The position numbers and the translations under genes are program-made. A stretch of DNA of 64,000 nt from Eledone cirrhosa (taxonomy: Eukaryota). A model generated the notes under the pieces. The model did no database searches. It saw nothing but the letters and a program-made list of their open reading frames with translations, and had not been told where the DNA came from. Where the stretch lies: positions 381,858,001 through 381,922,000 of the forward strand of contig OZ024740.1 in NCBI GenBank assembly GCA_964016885.1, in the 5' to 3' direction. Shown here piece by piece: positions 1,235 to 44,735 of the stretch (positions within the stretch are counted from its first letter, which is position 1; every line of letters starts with the position of its first letter).

Positions 1235-2298
1235 TAAAGTTAGTCCTTCATCAGTGATCTTCCAACCATCATTGGTATTTCATCGCTTTAAAGACCATAT
1301 ACCTCCGGTTGGTGCGAGCAACGGCTAAAAAAAGTCGTTGGGACACGTAAATAAAGGGGACACGAGAGTGTAAACAAACAAAGATGGTGGAGCAACGAAA
1401 AGTGAGGAAGAAGGAGTCAAGTCCCAAATTTCCATGAATATAAGTTCGGTGAAATCGTGAACGAGAGAGAATAAAGACAATCAAACCTGGTTGGAATGAG
1501 AGCAAGGAAGGAATTCCGTACAGGTCTAACGGTAGGAAGAAGGAATCTAGTCTGTAAATTTGGTAAACATAAGTTCTGTGAAATCGTAGATGGTTGGAAG
1601 ATCATTGATGAAGGACTAAATTTATTCATATGTAACCCATTAGCAACCACGCAGCACGTTTATTCTCATATTTACACATATTTTTTCCCTCGCTGTGACC
1701 CGTCTATTTCGTTCTTACTGCTCCTCTTTCTCTGTATCTTTATCCTCTCTAGCAGTCACTCTCTCTGTTAGCCTATTCCTCACCCGTCACTCACTCACTC
1801 TCTGCTACTACCTCTCCTCCTCCTTCTCCTCCTTCCCGTTTGACCTGTGCGTAATTCTTTTCTTTCGCACCCTTAGTCAGGCAGGTTTCCTTTTTTTTCT
1901 CTCTCTCATCTACGATTTCACAGAATTTATGTTTACCGAATTCACAGACTAGATTCCTTCTTCCTCCCGTTAGACCTGTACCGAATTCCTTCCTTGCTCA
2001 CATTCCAACCAGGTTTGATGGTCTTTATTCTCTCTCGTTCACGATTTCACCAAATTCATGGAAATTTGGGACTTGACTCCTTCTTCCTCACTTTTCGTTG
2101 CTTCACCATATTTGTTTGTTTACACTCTCGTGTCCCCTTTATTTACGTGTCCCAACGACTTTTTTTAGCCGTTGCTCGCACCAACCGGAGGTATATGGTC
2201 TTTAAAGCGATGAAATACCAATGATGGTTGGAAGATCACTGATGAAGGACTAACTTTATTCATATGTAACTCATTAGCAACCACGCAGCACGTTTATT

Positions 2299-6525: not shown

Positions 6526-7413
<888 letters not shown>

Positions 7414-11722: not shown

Positions 11723-13764
11723 TTATAAGTTATATATAGTTCTGAATGTTGAATTCTGGCGATGTCTACAAGAATTAAATAAATTCGTTCTGAGATTAAT
11801 AGAGATTTTTACAGTTAATTATATAAAAAATGTCTTCAATACACAATTTACAGAATCTAGATAAAGATGTGTTTCGGTACGCGGGTGCTTTCGAAACTGT
11901 TTTACAAGATAATGAATAGTCTATATTCTTGCATTTTAAGTTCCATATCAGGTTTGAAATAGGAGTAGAAGATTTGTTATCAAATCTTCTGAAAGAAAAA
12001 TTGTGGTTATTCCAGCAAAGTTTAAATTCTTTAGAAGTGGCACCGACATAGTTAAATATATTTTCAATAGTTTTAACTGTGCATTTGTAGTCCACGTTTT
12101 TATCTAAACACTTATTTTGTAAAGGACAGTTTGATTTAATTCTAAAGTTATATTTTGCGGAGTTGTTGTTGCTCGGAACGGTACTATTATGTTGGATGTT
12201 GCTAGAAATATTATTATTGCTGTTTTGGTTATTTTGTTTAGGGTTTAAATTGATGTTTCTATTATTAATTCTATTTATATTTTGTGCTATGTTCATAGTA
12301 GTAGAGTAGGATAATTTTATGGTATGTCTGTTAAAGATTGAGTGGTATCTGTGGGCTTTAGGAAAACCTTTGTCTAGTGCGTTAAAGAATAGCTTTCCTA
12401 AAGGTGTTTTAATGCTTAATGAGAATGGGGTTGAATACCAAATACTGTTTCTAGTTCTTTTGTTAGTTTTAGAGTTTAAGTTAATAGTAGGGTGATTTGC
12501 CTTATTATTGTTGTTAATGTATTTAATTTTATTTGTATACCCTGCTCAATTTAAAGCTTCATTATAATATTGAGCCTTATCATCAAAAATGTTTTTATTA
12601 GCGGAGATGCGTGAAATCCGTTGTTGGACACTATTGACAATAGTGTTCTTAATAGATCTAGGATGACTAGAGTTAAAACTTACATAATTTAGATTCTCAT
12701 TAATTTTATGGAATGGATAATAGAGCCCTGTGCTAAGGTTTAATGTTACGTCTAAAAAGATAACGATTGTATAGTTATTCTCTATTTCTAACTTAAGGCT
12801 GTAGTTATTGAAGAATTGTATTATGGATTTTCTTTTCCTATTAATTTCACAATTACTATGATTTTCAATTAAAAGCAGCATATCATCACGACATAAACCA
12901 CCGGTCATCTCTGGTATTTTTCTATGCAGTGAATTATTAATAAATAACCTCACAATATCCGTTATTTGCGCCGAGTCAGATGATCACAAAGTGATATCAA
13001 AATTATTTTTTCTATCAGCTCTTGTCCAGAGATGATTGTTGAATTCAATTAAAGTTTTCCGTGCGGTTAAAATGATATGCATTTCTTCACTAGATAGATC
13101 TGTATGTTTAGATGCATAGATAAGGTGTCTTATTAAGTAAACTAGGAGTAATAGAGGAGTAGTAATTTGCAATATCCATTTGAATGAATTTTTTGTTATG
13201 TTTACATTTTATGTTATTGAATTAATCTATAACCTCATTAGTATCGTTCCATAGTTTTAGGTATGATTTTTCTTTAAGTTGCGGTATGATTCTATCTAAT
13301 ATATCTTTACTAACTATGCCTAAGTCTGATTTAGATGGTGTTATAAGTCTGACTGGTAGTTCTATTTCAAAGTTTCTTTTGTGGTCTTTCAGGTTAATTT
13401 TCGGTCTTCTAGGTATAAAGGGTTCAGTCCTATTTTCGATGCATAATTTATGAGTTATTTCAGAAGCTTCTCTATTTAACGTTTCAAGATCGTCTTTAGT
13501 TGTTATTTTGTAATTTTTCCCGAGTTCTTTCAATATAAGGTTATTGTATTCGTCCTTTGGCATTCCATATAGATTGTTTGTTTCATCAGATTTTACGAGG
13601 ATCCTCTCAGTTTTGCCTATATTATTATTGAGGCCTTTAAGGTATACATGGCCTACAAATTGGTTTTTCTTGAATTTGATGTTTTCAATAATCGATATTA
13701 TTTCATTTTCAAATTCCATTAATAGTTTGTTGTTAGGTGGGTTCTTCTTGGATTTGAAGATCAT
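11723..13764 (-). pseudogene. PLE RT + C-terminal GIY-YIG endonuclease (decayed; Hydra-clade-like)
   Basis: LKDHKRNF...VRLITPSKSDLGIVSK; FDITL*SSDSAQITD; GGLCRDD; FLDVTLNL; YPFHK...SSHP; CPLQNKCL..NVDYKCTV...YVGATSKEFK..WNNH; CKLC; CRH. Stops and frameshifts present. Confidence 0.9.
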
Positions 13765-15194
13765 ATCGATTTTATATCATATCAATTTTTCTTTCAGAAG
13801 ATTTGATAAAAAATCTTCAATTTATCTTTCAAACCTGATATGGAACTTAAAATGCAAGAATATAGACTATTCATTATCTTGGAAAACAGTTTCGAAAACA
13901 CCCGCGTTCCGAAACACAGCTTTATCTAGATTCTGTAAATACGTGTATTGAAGAAATGTTTTATATAATTAACTGTAAAAACTCTATTAATCTCAGAACG
14001 AATTTATTTTATTCTTGTAGATATCGCCAGAATTCGACATTCAGAATTATAAATAACTTATAATTATACTTATAATATTCCTATTAATCTCCATAAAAAT
14101 CTCATCTACTTTACTTTTAATATATTGATATCTGTAAATCATAATATCTCTAACATTTGCTGTACTTCCACTTTTTAAAAAATGTTCTCATAATATTTAC
14201 GTATATAATTCTAATTTTTAAAATTTTAATATTTTAATAAAAACATTTTAAATTATTTTTAATTTTTTTATTTTCTATTTTAATTTTTAATTTTTAATTT
14301 TTTTTTTTAATTAAAAAAACAATTTTTTAAAATTTTTTCAATATTTTTAATTTTTTAATTTTCTTAATTTCTTAATTCTTAAGTCTTTATTAAGTACAAT
14401 AAGACTCTTTAAAGCTATTATTGAAATGTAGGTAATAACAACTAACATTCTGGCTAAATGCATCCATACTTATTTTGACAAAATATTCTCACACTAACGA
14501 ATAAATAAAATCGGAGTTTATTTTTCCTTATCTTTCCTTTTTAATCCTATAAATATTATTACTTAACTCCGTTAATTTAATTTTAAATCATTCTCAATTT
14601 TAAATACATCTTTATTTACATAATATACCCATTTATTTATTTATTTATTTATTTATTTATCTACTTAAAACAGAACAAAAATATCCCTTGTAACTCATAT
14701 TATAAACAAATTATAAACAACTAATAATTGTAAATTATCCTTTTAACATAAATACACATACTATTAAAATATATACTTACATTTATACATAGATAACTGA
14801 TCGAATTTTTTTCCCTCATATTAACGTTATATGAGCTTTTCATTTACCTTTGCTTTTTTCCTTCTTCTCTCTCTCTTACTATTTTTTCCTTCTACACTCT
14901 CTTACTATTATATATTATATATCTAAACTCTCCATAGTCGTTTAAATTAACGGTTCTTTTTCAATTAAATGCATATTCACCCATAAGCTTGAAACATCCA
15001 TTATACATTTCCACTGGAATATTCAACATGGAATATTCAACTGATAAAGTATGATATTCCTGGGTATGTCTCTATTCATAAAACAAACTTTGTATTTTAT
15101 CTGAAGAAAGCGTACCAAAGTGTGTTGGCGCCTTTGAAATATATATAATAATATAAACATGGTTTTATAAATATAGTTTCCATTTATTTAATAT

Positions 15195-15574: not shown

Positions 15575-15968
15575 TGGGAGAACAGGATTGGCTGTGTAGT
15601 TGCTAGTTAACCTAGCTTAAAATGGAATGAGAATAAGTTGAAAGCAAGAAGAGGGGGGGGGGCTCATCAGTTGTCTACTGGGGGTCTCAGATATTTCAAC
15701 GCTTTAATGACAAGATATCTACCCACAGCGCGTTTAATAACTGGGTAAGTTATTGAGAAAACGGAGTATAGGGGGGAAGAAAAATAGAAGGGAAAAGGGA
15801 AAAGAGAAAACAGCGAAAAACAACAACAAACCGAGCAATGTGCGAGCAACTTAAGGTAAGATACCTCGTCTTTAAAGCGTTGAAATAACCGAGACCCCCA
15901 GTAGACAACTGATGAGAAACACTCCCCCCCCCCGTTCTCGCTTTCTTCTTATTCTCATTCCATTTTAC
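15575..15968. mobile_element. Fold-back element in (TA)n (family B), carrying the permuted hammerhead-like motif
   Basis: 15619-15723 is inverted (diverged) at 15855-15967. (TA)n flanks. Confidence 0.8.
15663..15733 (-). ncRNA. Permuted hammerhead-like motif, second family (decayed partial copy 15855-15916, +)
   Basis: acgc-g-ctgtggg-t-agata-TC-ttgtcat-taaa-gcgt-t-GAAA-tatct-gaga-cccccag-tagacaa-CTGATGA-g. Same 71-nt length and order as 2176-2246, with compensatory helix changes. Confidence 0.65.
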
Positions 15969-15989
15969 TATATATATATATATATGTAT

Positions 15990-23776: not shown

Positions 23777-23889
23777 GAGAGAATGTTACATAATATAATG
23801 TTCCATATATTGGTTTTCCACTATGGTGTCTTGTTTGCATCAGTATACTTGAGCTCCTATAGTTTAGCTATTTACTGTTAGAAGTCACC

Positions 23890-26203
23890 ATGTTGAGCAA
23901 GCAGGAACTCAGAATCTCACTTAAGTCCATGCCTAACCCGGACAGGAAGACATACCTCAAACTCCTAATACAGAGTGTCAACTCTTTCATCCGAAGAATA
24001 ATATGGAAAGCGTTCCACTTTGACCATGCGGTTGCTGCTGACGCCGGAAGTACAGCAAATAGATATGGATTTACCACCTGCAAGAACCCCCCACACACCA
24101 TCCTGCTGGACCCTTTTGAGAAAGATCTATTCAACTTCCTCAGGAGCATTAAATTCAAAAATCATTATAGACACAAAAATAATTTCCTCACTAAATTAGC
24201 AACAACTATAAAAACATTTAAAGATAGCCACCTCTTACATGTTATGTCTGACAAAACTAAAAATCAATACACCATGACTCCTGAAACTTACAACTCTTTC
24301 CTTCTTAAATAACTCAATAAAAACTATAAAAAAACTATACCCTCCAGTGTAAACGTACTTAACCGAAAAGCCCAGGCTTTGGTTAAGGACTTGCATCTGG
24401 ATAGATTTACCCACCCTTATGTACCAACAACCCCAAGGATCATAAGCCAAACTTTATAGAGAACCCATCTATTAGACTTATAAGCCCGACCACATCCGAC
24501 CTGGGCCGTATCAGTAAGAACATCCTTGATAGGATAATCCATGGGCTACGGGATGATATCACCTACAAGTTGTGGTCCAACACCGGCCAAGTAATTAGAT
24601 GGTTCTCCGATCTCAGGTCCAAGCAATCTATGAGGTTCATCCAATTTGACATCGACAGCTATTACGCATCAATAACCCCGGAACTGCTCAACAAAGCATT
24701 AACCCTAGCCAGCACCAACTCGGACATAACCAATAATGAGATTAACATCATACTTATGGCTAGGCAGACTATCATTGAATTCAACGGAGCACGCTGGACT
24801 AGAAAAGATAGAACAGACAACTTTGACATCACGATGGGCTCAAGTGACTCTGCGCAAATCACCGATTTAGTTGGAATTTACCTATTACATAACATCAGAG
24901 CCGAAATCCAACCCTTGCAAGGCGGAATATACAGAGACGACGCCCTATTTGCAGTCCACAATTGCACTAATCGGGGCATTGATTTGCTAAAAAACAATTA
25001 CATAGATTCTTTTAAAATAACGGTCTCTCTATCACCAACGAGCCGAACCATAAAGTAGTAAACTTCCTAGACGTCACCCTGGATCTCAACAATAACCTAT
25101 ATTACCCTTACCATAAACCAGGTGAAATACTCACATATATTAGCTCACACTCTAACCACCCACCGGCAGTCATCGGAGCAGTAATCAAATCTATCTCGTA
25201 TAGGATCTCAATGCTATCAGCAAATGAGGAGATATTTATAAACCATGCACAATATTATAATAAGGCTCTTTCTGAATCTGGTTATGAACAATCAACCCTA
25301 GAATAGGAATGAGAAATGGGATTACAAATAACAAATCCCCAGGTAATAATAACCCTAGGAAGTCCCTTACCAACTCCACTAGAACCCCTAGAAGGAATAG
25401 ACCTAGAAATATCACCTGGCTTTACCCCCCCCCCCCCATTCTCATCTAATCTAGCCACTAATATCCCTAAACGCTTCTTCTCTATCCTATCTAAACATTT
25501 TCCCCCAACCATAGATATTACAAACTCTTTAATAAAAATAACATTAAAATCTCATTCTCCACAACACCTAACCTATCTAGCCACATCGCATTCAGTAACC
25601 ATCATAAACTAAGACAGTATAACTCCCACACCGCGGTACCACCACCCCTATCTAATACACCACGCCACTACACCAATAATTACTCTAGTAGCACACCTCC
25701 CCATCTAATCCTTCTAGCACTAACCTACCGCTTAGGTTAAACTACCCTACTCTCACTAACCGCAGACGCAACTGCAACTGCCGTTACCCTAATGCATGCC
25801 CATTAAATGGACACTGCCTGACACCCAACATAGTCTATAGGTGCACGGTTAAAACTACTTCGAATACCAGCTCTTATATCGGGTCTACCTCTAACCCTTT
25901 TAAGGTACGCTATAACGCGCACTCTTTTTCCTTCCGAGACCCTAGCAATAGATGTTCGATATCGCTAGCTAGGCTCATTAAAAACCTTAAATTAAGCTAC
26001 ATTCAACACTCATTAAAATGGGATATCGTGGCTAGGGCCCAACCGTTCAATAGACGACAAAATCTTGTGATCTCTGTATTACAGAAGCATATTACATAAC
26101 TCTATCACGACCTGTACCGATTAACGATAGAACGGAGGTAACTATTAGCTGTCAACATCGAAGGGCTAATTCCTTCGCCAATAGAATATTTGACCCAACT
26201 TAG
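23890..26203 (+). pseudogene. PLE RT + GIY-YIG endonuclease (frameshifted; Hydra-clade-like CxCx5C linker)
   Basis: SFIRRIIWKAFHF; FIQFDIDSYYASI; FDITMGSSDSAQITD; GGIYRDDAL; NFLDVTLDL; YPYHKP..SNHPP; CNCRYPNACPLNGHCLTPNIVYRCTV...YIGSTSNPFKVRYNAH; CDLC; CQH. The clade assignment is from memory of the motif, not from a search. Confidence 0.9.
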
Positions 26204-29810: not shown

Positions 29811-32255
29811 TTATACTTCTCTTAGGTCAGTGTTGTTTGTTTGTGTGTTGTTGTTTTTCCATTCATTTTTTCTGTTTAGCCTTGGCCTTCTAAGTTCTAT
29901 TTGCCTACCTGCTGGGTCATTTCTATGTTTAGATATTATTCTAATTTCTATGTTGTCTATGTTACCGTCGTGTTGTTGTCTGGCATGTTCGTATAGTACT
30001 GAACCGCTTTTTCGTCCTTTTAGTTCCTCCCAGTGTTGGTCTATCCTTTCAACTATGCTACGAGCTGTCTCGCCTATGTATGTTGTTGTCATGTTTCTGC
30101 AAGTACCCTCTGTACATCTTATGCTATAGACTACGTTTCTAGTTTTACAGTTTATCCGTGGGTTTACCTTACATATGATACATTTCCTATTAGTACAGGG
30201 GGTTTTCTTAAAAGGGTAGGTTTTGTTGATCAGGGATTTTATGGTGGTTCCTGGCTTTTCTACCACCTTAATCTTTAAGTGGGTCTTTCTCAGGGCCTTT
30301 CTACACTGGTTAGCTAATTTCTCTGCAGGGGTAGCGTCCACAAACATGACACTTTGGTATCTCTGGTTGTCGTACCATGAGGTGGCTTTCCCTAACTTAT
30401 GTCTAGCCCTATCTTAGCTATTCCATGATTTGCTCCTGCATACTGGGCAAATGCCTTTCATGGCCAGTTCTATAAGGGTCTTATACGTCTCCGTGGATCG
30501 TTCGTATACTTTGATTCTGTCTCTTTGGTTGTAGCCTGAGAACTGCATGCGGTTAATGAAGTGTTGGATGTGTCTTTCCATTTCTGTTGGGTGGCACATG
30601 CGGGACACGTTCTTCATCACTCGTACCAAGTCTGCGATCAGAATATTAAACCTAGCACTACTGGACATTGCTGAGTTTTTGAGTATCAGGTATTTCGAGG
30701 CCATGGGTTTAACATAGTGTGAGTGGAGAATTTGGGCTCTCTCGTCTATAGTGTTAATCCAGAGTTCTGTGTCTAATACAGGTAGTCTATTGTTAGGGTG
30801 TTTGAAAGGGTAGTCGATAGTTACAGTTATACTGTGGTGTACGGAATTAGATATCTGCTGGATGCTTTCCATTGTGCTACGTTCTAAATCAAACTTATTA
30901 GTGCTCTCTTGTGGGGATGTTCTTATAACTATATTGATGTCGTCTACGTAACGAGAGTACATGATGAGGTCTATGGACCTCTCATCAAGGAGAACTTTGA
31001 GACTCCTTTCCCACCATACCATAAAAAGATTGGCAACGTCACCAGCTATACTGACGCCAATGGCTGCTCCCTTATTTTGGGTGTAGATCTTCTCGTTGAA
31101 TTTGAATATGTGGTCCTTTAGGGTAGTTTTGATACTAGCCCCTATTGCATGTGCGACCATTTTTCTTGCCTGATCATTGTTTTGGGGGGTCCGTATAGCT
31201 TTGTTCCACCCAATCCACCTTCCCATGGGAGTCTTTTTAGCCATTGAGGTTATGGTGGAGGTCTACCTCTTATGGGTCTACTGGGGCAGAAACGTCTAAG
31301 ATCATGTCTGTCTAGGTAGTCAGTGTCGTAGGTAAGTCTAAGTAGGAGGCCCAGTTCGTCTGTGTCGACGTCGCTGACCTCCACCTCACTCTCAATGATC
31401 ATTTCCACACATTTTTCCACAGCAAAATCAATGTTAATGGATGGGTACAGTGATACCACATCCATGCTGCCTATGATGCAGTTGGATAGGTTTTTGTTTT
31501 TGTTGCACTCACTGATTCTGCTGAGGAGGTCTTATGTACTGTCACATACATTTGGGGATATCTTGATTATGGGGCGTATAACCATTGAGAGGAAATATGA
31601 GATCCTGTAGTTGCTAGCTATATTTGCTCCGCATACGGGTCTTGTTGGTGGTCCTGTTGTCGGGTCGTCGACTGTCTTGTGGTCTTTGCGGAGCCCATAC
31701 AAGTGTTGTATGCCATTGTTAGACGCCTGGAAGTTGTTGGCAGTGCGTCTGTTTGGCTTTAGGATGTCGGTCCACATCATCATGTGAGCGTTAAGGATTT
31801 TCTCTCTCCCATCATGTATTTGCTGCTCAATTTCGCTCGTGTTGGTGATGTGGGGTTGCATAGCCTTGATCTAGTTCGGCATGTTATCTATTGACATCCT
31901 ACCAGACTTATCCGTGGGTAGACATACAACCTCACCATCCCTTGTGCGCTGCTTGAGGCTAACCAAGCCTCCTACAGGTTTCCTCCCAAGTTGTTGGGCC
32001 TCTGGTCTGCTCTGTCTCTTAGTATACCGGTCTACTATTTGTCTTATCTTATTTCTAGATATGGTGAACTGTGCCTCTCTCTCGTCATCTATTTACTGTG
32101 GTATGCACACTCTTTATTAAAGGGTAACCTCGTAGGATAGATATTACCCATCTTATATGTTTTGTCAGCTGGATTGAAGAATAGTTTCTCTAAGGGGTTG
32201 TCATTATATCTATCGTCATAGTTGTGTGTGTTACTATTATTGTTATTATGGTGGT
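29811..32255 (-). pseudogene. PLE RT + GIY-YIG endonuclease (decayed)
   Basis: LYGLRKDHK..GPPTRPVCGA; MDVVSLYPSI; GAAIGVSIAGDVANLFM; YSRYVDDINIV; LPVLDTELW; HYVKPMAS; CTNRKCIIC..CKTRNVVYSIRC..C...YIGETARSIVERIDQH. Confidence 0.9.

Positions 32256-40340: not shown

Positions 40341-44735
<4,395 letters not shown>

Follow-up and report, generated by a model that had tools for sequence, protein, structure and literature searches.

The two arms of the inverted insertion at 15576..15969 are probably terminal-repeat copies of a non-coding Penelope-type element, likely derived from Naiad, that carries a reversed four-strand hammerhead predicted to self-cleave. The insertion is 394 bp long, is set in (TA)n and belongs to a repeat family that we call family B; it lies in a 64,000-nt window, by which we mean the whole stretch of Eledone cirrhosa DNA analysed here. 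Read 5′ to 3′, the strands of the predicted RNA are ordered as X, P3b, helix III, UH, helix I, a linker, the helix II strand, GAAA, helix III, a 3-nt bulge followed by GA, P3b, helix I and CUGAUGA. An earlier note had proposed a permuted hammerhead-like motif in this family, and the motif is real in both arms. The pattern GAAA-N7-GA-N14-CTGATGA, in which the CUGANGA and GAAA boxes and the GA of the bulged strand are constraints of the search, has 20,880 matches in the 3.0-Gb genome versus 54 for the reversed control.

Anatomy of the insertion and its arms

The elements have Penelope-type anatomy, with an inverted 5′-truncated arm, an optional tail, a (TA)n target and tandem units of 445-762 nt. 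This is the pseudo-LTR arrangement, whose features are common to other PLE clades too. The family-B unit contains no ORF, and the elements are non-autonomous. Within the insertion the two 3′ ends differ, the minus arm being long (with a tail) and the plus arm short, and the 3′ ends of family B fall into two classes about 45 nt apart. Separately, the minus strand at 15600-15670 and other family-B copies have CUGAU, then a pyrimidine tract, then an AG some 55 nt further on, an arrangement reminiscent of a branch point with its 3′ splice site; in many family-B copies the short 3′ end coincides with that AG.

The minus arm (15576..15861, minus strand) is nearly intact: it begins some 150 nt upstream of the cut site, spans the motif and finishes at the end of the tail. 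Its predicted structure begins with P0, a 7-bp hairpin (15736..15754) immediately 5′ of the fourth strand, X (AACGC, 15730..15734), which would form the 5′ side of helix II with 15702-15698. The 5′ strand of P3b follows together with the non-bulged side of the kink (15720..15728), which reads UA here; one P3b mismatch also lies in this segment. Block S (15708..15719) comprises the helix III strand GAUAU, C17 and a helix I strand, with UC at 15715-15714, TTGTCA at 15713-15708 and the predicted cut between 15714 and 15713. Block G (15690..15707) holds a 5-nt linker, the helix II strand GCGUU, the GAAA core (15697-15694) and the second helix III strand. It is followed by a kink-turn-like element consisting of the 3-nt bulge, GA and the 3′ strand of P3b (15678..15689). 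Block C without a helix II strand of its own (15664..15676) completes the motif, with the helix I strand AGACAA (15676-15671) and the CTGATGA core (15670-15664). The change at 15708 breaks the distal helix I pair of this arm; sequencing contigs from three runs of one sample show that the family is abundant and that the 15708 change is private. Helix I and P3b each have a single broken pair in the minus arm, which may still fold.

The plus arm (15859..15969, plus strand) is 5′-truncated 7 nt before the cut site, with 3-nt microhomology at 15859-15861. Because 15790-15861 lies on the opposite strand and is upstream of the motif in other copies, we read the plus arm as a truncated copy joined to the inverted arm. 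Its motif comprises CC (15864-15865), TCGTCT (15866-15871), GAAA (15882-15885), AGACAA (15903-15908) and CTGATGA (15909-15915), and it lacks the three upstream strands, namely P0, X and the 5′ strand of P3b. Blocks S and G of this arm bear three changes, and U16.1, and with it the NUH triplet, is lost. The plus arm is predicted to be dead and unable to fold. The letters that the earlier note gave for the two arms (CC and TCGTCT on the plus arm, TTGTCA on the minus arm) are correct; its list for the plus arm missed the third change, ATAAC for ATATC in helix III. The same note held that the arms had decayed separately. The copies have indeed decayed, but the loss in the plus arm stems mainly from truncation at about 15859.

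A second family, A, is represented in the window by a copy at 2153..2245 (plus strand), which has the same predicted fold and a full tandem G.A kink-turn signature, and by its inverted partner at 1248..1340 (minus strand). As previously claimed, motif spacing is the same in families A (2239 on the plus strand and 1254 on the minus strand) and B. The two families had been thought to share only one 10-nt word, gttgctcgca; they also have in common a 10-nt word downstream of the motif and a homologous hairpin immediately on its 5′ side. The gttgctcgca match itself is 11 nt long and falls at non-homologous positions in the two families. Between the family-A arms lies a third, partial copy at 1590-1680 (plus strand) with a changed first core base.

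The window also contains standard-order minimal hammerheads at 6827(−)/7085(+), 16264(−)/16513(+), 20600, 21130, 21660(+)/20942, 21472(−), 22688(−) and 29543(−), mostly within inverted Penelope-type repeats and none picked up by Rfam. Broken Penelope-type ORFs with reverse transcriptase (RT) and C-terminal GIY-YIG pieces occur at 11796-13776(−), 23863-26099(+), 29811-31262(−) and 41364-41777(+); their Pfam matches are weak, and two of the ORFs are flanked by long inverted repeats.

Abundance, predicted fold and decay

Genome-wide, copies belong to many sequence families, whose spacing is almost constant. The family-B pattern gave 910 matches versus 0 for its control, and a pattern with C before GAAA, which defines the C-type families, gave 377 versus 0. 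We read 190 distinct copies at fetched loci, of which 151 keep block S; its absence from the other 39 is due to truncation, decay or chance. Rfam returned no match at gathering score in the window and two chance matches only around the motif, which is expected because the strand order is scrambled. A metagenome scan gave one match, which lacks block S and was taken as chance. At loci L111-L113 (G000:C1:111929000-111953900) a block of about 5.2 kb occurs three times at 97-99% identity with a family-B-type copy in each, which is either a recent duplication or an assembly artefact. Copies 5.2 kb apart at C1:111.93-111.95 Mb were considered as full-length elements and rejected, the repeat being a duplicated genomic block.

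Covariation was assessed in 18 natural copies, one per cluster with common spacing, hand-picked from 43 clusters; three shorter-linker clusters, in which the aligner misplaced a gap, were dropped, as was the window arm, which would have represented family B1 twice. Across the four helices of these representatives, 86.5% of 414 cells are paired and 17 of 23 pairs show two-sided changes. The covariation score was 0.512, versus 0.223 ± 0.019 for shuffled and at most 0.157 for slid alignments, a comparison that overstates significance under shuffling because the families are related and that is not a P value. Helix I is paired in 92.6% of cells with two-sided change in 5 of 6 pairs, helix III in 97.8% with two-sided change in 3 of 5, and the outer helix P3b in 79.4% with two-sided change at 6 of 7 positions; the innermost P3b position holds a non-standard pair in 14 of 18. 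The A15.1-U16.1 pair is present in all 18, and U16.1, which lies outside the search pattern, occurs in 146 of the 151 copies retaining block S (triplets AUA in 80, AUC in 47 and GUC in 7). In 19 of 21 representatives, P0 has no more than one unpaired position. A single base separates P3b from X, and another separates P3b from the helix I strand. Single-strand folding, a method blind to pseudoknots, recovered helix III and P3b only, and the window arms were not significant (z of −0.35 and 0.09).

Helix II proved to be the unusual part of the fold. Its complementarity had been set as a check by the earlier note; in the standard position, after CUGAUGA, it fails, with 34% of cells paired, no better than shuffled or slid controls, and we rejected a helix there. 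Complementarity is found with the fourth strand, X, which that note had not seen: 77.8% of cells are paired in the 18 representatives, four X pairs are each kept in 15-17 of the 18 rows, and two of these have two-sided changes. Among the 151 copies with block S, X makes 4 or all 5 of its possible Watson-Crick pairs in 111, versus 6 for the strand after CUGAUGA and 1-11 at six control windows. The backbone would then be open between A9 and 10.1, and the helix II strand is not continuous with A9. Position 11.1 is poorly served. The first base after A9 could pair with 11.1 in 11 of the 18 representatives, through four pair types, and 11.1 has no partner on either strand in 6. Neither family A nor family B has the canonical G10.1-C11.1 pair; X supplies it only in the C-type families here and in several published Naiads. 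Missing or weak pairing at 11.1 is the main structural weakness of the ribozyme reading.

Two further features near the core were noted by eye or by conservation. GGA one base after CUGAUGA is kept in most families, as seen in A1, A2, A7, A8, B2 and B4, with no Watson-Crick partner, and may make a tertiary contact. The A-rich linker could pair with downstream U-rich stretches.

In the kink-turn consensus, tandem G.A and A.G pairs come after a 3-nt bulge. At the junction of helix III and P3b, the motif has a 3-nt bulge and then GA. On the opposite strand, where no letters were constrained by the search, the 1n A is invariant (18 of 18), so that the first G.A pair is present in every representative. 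A full tandem, with GA on the non-bulged side, occurs in 12 of the 18 families and UA in the other 6, family B included. U mostly replaces G at kink position 2n in family B, and the window copy follows suit; two C-type families have Watson-Crick UC/GA instead of the tandem. The GA of the opposite strand appears to fit the kink-turn consensus, and conservation looks stronger for the bend than for the kink-turn as such. Such a bend would bring P3b to the outer ends of both helix I and helix II, closing the RNA into a cage.

The majority sequence of 66 family-B copies restores the 6-bp helix I, as the earlier note had predicted, with TTGTCT at 92-98% per column, and restores UH as well. Every element of the motif is intact in 20 of these 66. 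The accompanying proposal, that selection acted in active ancestors and not on genomic copies, is borne out in that copies decay, but their decay is not uniform. Among BLAST-found family-B copies the core differs from the majority in 14 of 560 cells, and change rates over 55 BLAST-found segments were 2.5% in the core, 3.4% in helices and 4.9% in flanks (Fisher P of 0.012 and 0.027). This unevenness may reflect selection on intermediate master copies, BLAST ascertainment or subfamily structure. Selection mostly on active masters, with inserted copies decaying, is our best reading of the decay, though short of proof.

Naiad relatives, the cut site and rival readings

Published relatives of this motif are seen by eye in Naiad elements. 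Naiads have a (TA)n target, inverted truncated arms and an optional tail, as does the family-B element (PMC8557442). The excerpts of that paper report no canonical hammerhead in Naiads and give 'HHR_core' or 'HHR_half_core' flags only. We examined its consensi by eye, in keyword excerpts and one whole supplement part rather than element by element. The four-strand layout lies at the 3′ end of 8 of 54 of these consensi with all helices changed in step, namely Naiad_Obim, Ovul, Amil, Aacu, Anas and Bfor, plus two whose names fall outside the excerpts. Amil, Aacu and Anas form one near-identical group and Obim and Ovul another; the latter two have the 23-nt spacing, kink and P0 loop of family A2, and X gives G10.1-C11.1. 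The Naiad_Omin consensus, seen whole, has no motif by eye. Five consensi of the nematode part, including Naiad-2_Nbra and Naiad-3_Nbra, are by eye complete hammerheads of type CSG (file S5, parts 13-16), in which G10.1-C11.1 is present and helices I and II are connected at their outer ends by a helix of 9-14 bp. One Naiad of the arthropod part (file S5, near part 16) has the order S-G-C, 7-bp helices I and III and an outer helix; a separate hairpin in its linker before GAAA possibly marks a further variant.

A Naiad origin of the families is inferred from this homology, and the motif likely cuts the RNA of Naiad-type elements. Naiads have an ORF with an N-terminal GIY-YIG domain and a C-terminal RT. 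The elements described here are short and non-coding, and no physical link between them and a Naiad ORF was found in this genome. No Naiad ORF was found upstream of 20 rare-family motifs. A genome search with one Naiad RT motif, which may miss younger families, gave 17 matches, mostly broken remnants that are 65-82% alike over stretches of the RT region, and the 16 of these Naiad-type matches that were followed downstream show no hammerhead motif within about 5 kb. The remnants at L243-L259 are decayed, by eye near octopus Naiads and much older than the motif-bearing short families. The two matches of a first RT pattern were non-Naiad RTs, and that pattern was discarded.

Cutting of templates after H17 should leave some copies that begin there. 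Two early loci, L047 and L080, hinted at such starts, and L047 is within the set used below. A fold-back junction pattern near the site gave 37 genome-wide matches versus 15 for its control, 29 of them in known families and 8 not. The longer fold-back arm starts at −1/0 in 14 of the 29, where three nulls, chance microhomology included, predict 3.6, 6.5 and 5.4 (P at most 0.0013). Counting any fold-back arm raises this to 15 of 29 (P at most 0.0075 under the three nulls), and the longer arm extends past −1 in only 7. Eleven of the 14 events are at −1, not 0, to which 1-nt microhomology may contribute. A control window about 25 nt upstream, with narrower family coverage, gave 14 matches versus 5, 3 of them clearly family-derived by eye.

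Direct junctions point the same way in family C, where 9 of 15 loci are family junctions, with starts at −8, −4, −1, 0, 0, +1, +1, +3 and +3. Five of these 9 fall at −1..+1 (P 0.012, in a window widened after seeing the data), and the flank has no TA homology; the strict −1/0 window holds 3 of 9 and is not significant (P 0.08). Most scored copies (127 of 183) read through the site, extending at least 75 nt upstream. In a general survey of these 183 copies, which retains some misassigned rows, the density of junctions climbs over the length of the motif, from 0.15 per nt to 1.2-1.5 per nt, with no sharp peak. Overall, the junction excess appears to be a real footprint and an indirect sign of cleavage. 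For a canonical PLE, the available parts of one study describe cleavage as dispensable in vitro, with no RNA ends at the site (PMC11167929).

We propose that the cage would fold in cis and cut transcripts of tandem units after H17. Some 15 base pairs, in the X helix, P3b and helix III, would hold the new 3′ end beside the new 5′ end. Re-ligation of the RNA, or a jump of the reverse transcriptase over the nick, could then give read-through and tandem copies, and a failed jump could yield either a copy starting at the cut or a fold-back into an inverted arm. Selection would act mostly on active masters while inserted copies decay.

Several readings of the same data compete with this proposal. 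One, which we regard as improbable, is that in families A and B a hammerhead-derived fold no longer cuts and is retained for a Penelope-type reverse transcriptase to recognise or to stall on. The weak 10.1-11.1 pair, the read-through in most copies and the in vitro dispensability of cleavage in another PLE all speak for it. Nonetheless, the catalytic letters are conserved in every family and in the published Naiads seen from several phyla, and arms start at the cut position, a place at which, by inference, an enzyme past the displaced downstream partner strands would meet no helix to stop it. Alternatively, the ribozyme might fold in trans or as a dimer, taking CUGAUGA and the helix I strand from a neighbouring tandem unit in the way of minimal PLE hammerheads, which work as dimers (PMC4209133, in excerpts). 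Tandem units are common and P3b is tightly tied in by a 1-nt link at either end, as this reading would have it. We nevertheless consider it quite improbable: helix III is a stable, non-palindromic 5-bp helix, unlike that of dimer-type hammerheads, every family has its bulge at one and the same position, which a cis fold would predict, and the parts of PMC10085705 consulted describe cleavage in cis by type-SGC RNAs that have an equivalent helix.

It is highly improbable that the motif is an ordinary type-SGC hammerhead that takes helix II from the strand right after CUGAUGA. The block order is indeed S-G-C and the first base after A9 can often pair with 11.1, but that helix is paired at control level, and it is the upstream strand that pairs and covaries. 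A further alternative concerns only the partner enzyme: the families could descend from Naiad ends and now be copied by another Penelope-type enzyme, for example of the C-terminal-endonuclease clade. We think this unlikely, though it is the rival to which we give most weight. The Naiad-type RT remnants are old and broken while some motif families have near-identical copies, and C-terminal-endonuclease ORFs are frequent nearby. Such ORFs beside family-B copies were rejected as the parent, since they end in a type I hammerhead of their own; three neighbouring ORF ends carry this canonical ribozyme and have no sequence in common with family B. The one-motif RT search, moreover, may have passed over younger Naiad families. 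For the motif itself, we retain the reading of a cis-cleaving, Naiad-derived hammerhead as the probable one.

Place among known hammerheads

Eckert et al. described six orders of the three hammerhead blocks in 2023 and, in the sections available to us, assumed CUGAnGA to be uninterrupted from the helix II strand (PMC10085705). There, types SGC and CSG come from metatranscriptomes and metagenomes, with none in genomes of known organisms and CSG comprising two metagenomic sequences, and type-SGC RNAs with an extra helix cleave in cis. The motif described here has the SGC order, with cut site, GAAA and CUGAnGA running 5′ to 3′, and both its block order and core letters are those of HRIMA-1 and its variants. 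In both, a short linker joins the helix I strand to the helix II strand, and, from the text of that paper, the connections of P3b appear equivalent to those of the extra helix labelled 'I' in type SGC, which joins the other sides of stems I and II. The difference lies in block C, in which the stem I strand, CUGAnGA and the stem II strand do not follow one another in a row: the helix II strand follows CUGAnGA in type SGC, whereas here it is a separate 5′ strand. The present motif, unlike type SGC, also keeps both links between the extra helix and helix III and has the kink-like bulge. It is predicted to work like type SGC yet is outside SGC as defined there, and its four-strand order is outside the six published orders. 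Cleavage has been shown for type SGC; the motif here is a predicted ribozyme, present in tens of thousands of animal genomic copies. Type CSG has the same cyclic block order but opens after helix III and leaves block C whole. SGC, CSG and the present form can be read as three openings of one circular design: before helix III, after helix III, and between A9 and 10.1.

A broader reading, which we put forward tentatively, is that this is a seventh hammerhead wiring, with its opening in the catalytic strand and a kink-turn that closes it into a cage, and one form of a Naiad-wide reversed-order ribozyme, with type CSG in nematodes and the present form in molluscs, cnidarians and ctenophores. The ribozyme would cut the element RNA and clamp its ends for ligation or an RT jump. 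If true, this would explain Penelope-like insertions that are inverted or longer than a unit. It would place non-circularly permuted hammerheads, nearly all environmental so far in the literature consulted in part, in animal genomes at tens of thousands of copies, with a wiring beyond the six orders thought possible by Eckert et al. (PMC10085705). Craig et al. found Naiads without a canonical hammerhead, as far as the excerpts of their paper go (PMC8557442); the reading would account for this, as standard descriptors would miss such an order. The kink-turn would likewise be a concrete answer to the puzzle, raised in the consulted parts of PMC10085705, of how the extra helix is joined to stem III. 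The pile-up of junctions would be a rare, if indirect, genomic sign of in vivo cutting by a Penelope-type hammerhead, and the ribozyme prediction is directly testable with RNAs of about 105 nt. Searches for permuted, Naiad, Penelope and kink-turn hammerheads, which mostly did not cover subscription journals, found no prior description of the motif.

The other natural comparison is with the minimal type I hammerheads of PLEs. As far as the excerpts of the relevant papers go, these are also terminal-repeat ribozymes with dispersed, inverted and tandem copies (PMC4209133; bioRxiv 10.64898/2026.07.22.740005). They and the non-LTR retrozymes likewise form many covarying families per genome and tolerate an extra base after A9. 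The units described here resemble non-LTR retrozymes in being tandem and non-coding with one motif each, but their motif is not type I. Minimal type I hammerheads have the standard order and a short palindromic helix III, and act as dimers (PMC4209133), whereas the motif described here has the reversed order, a stable helix III and a predicted outer cage.
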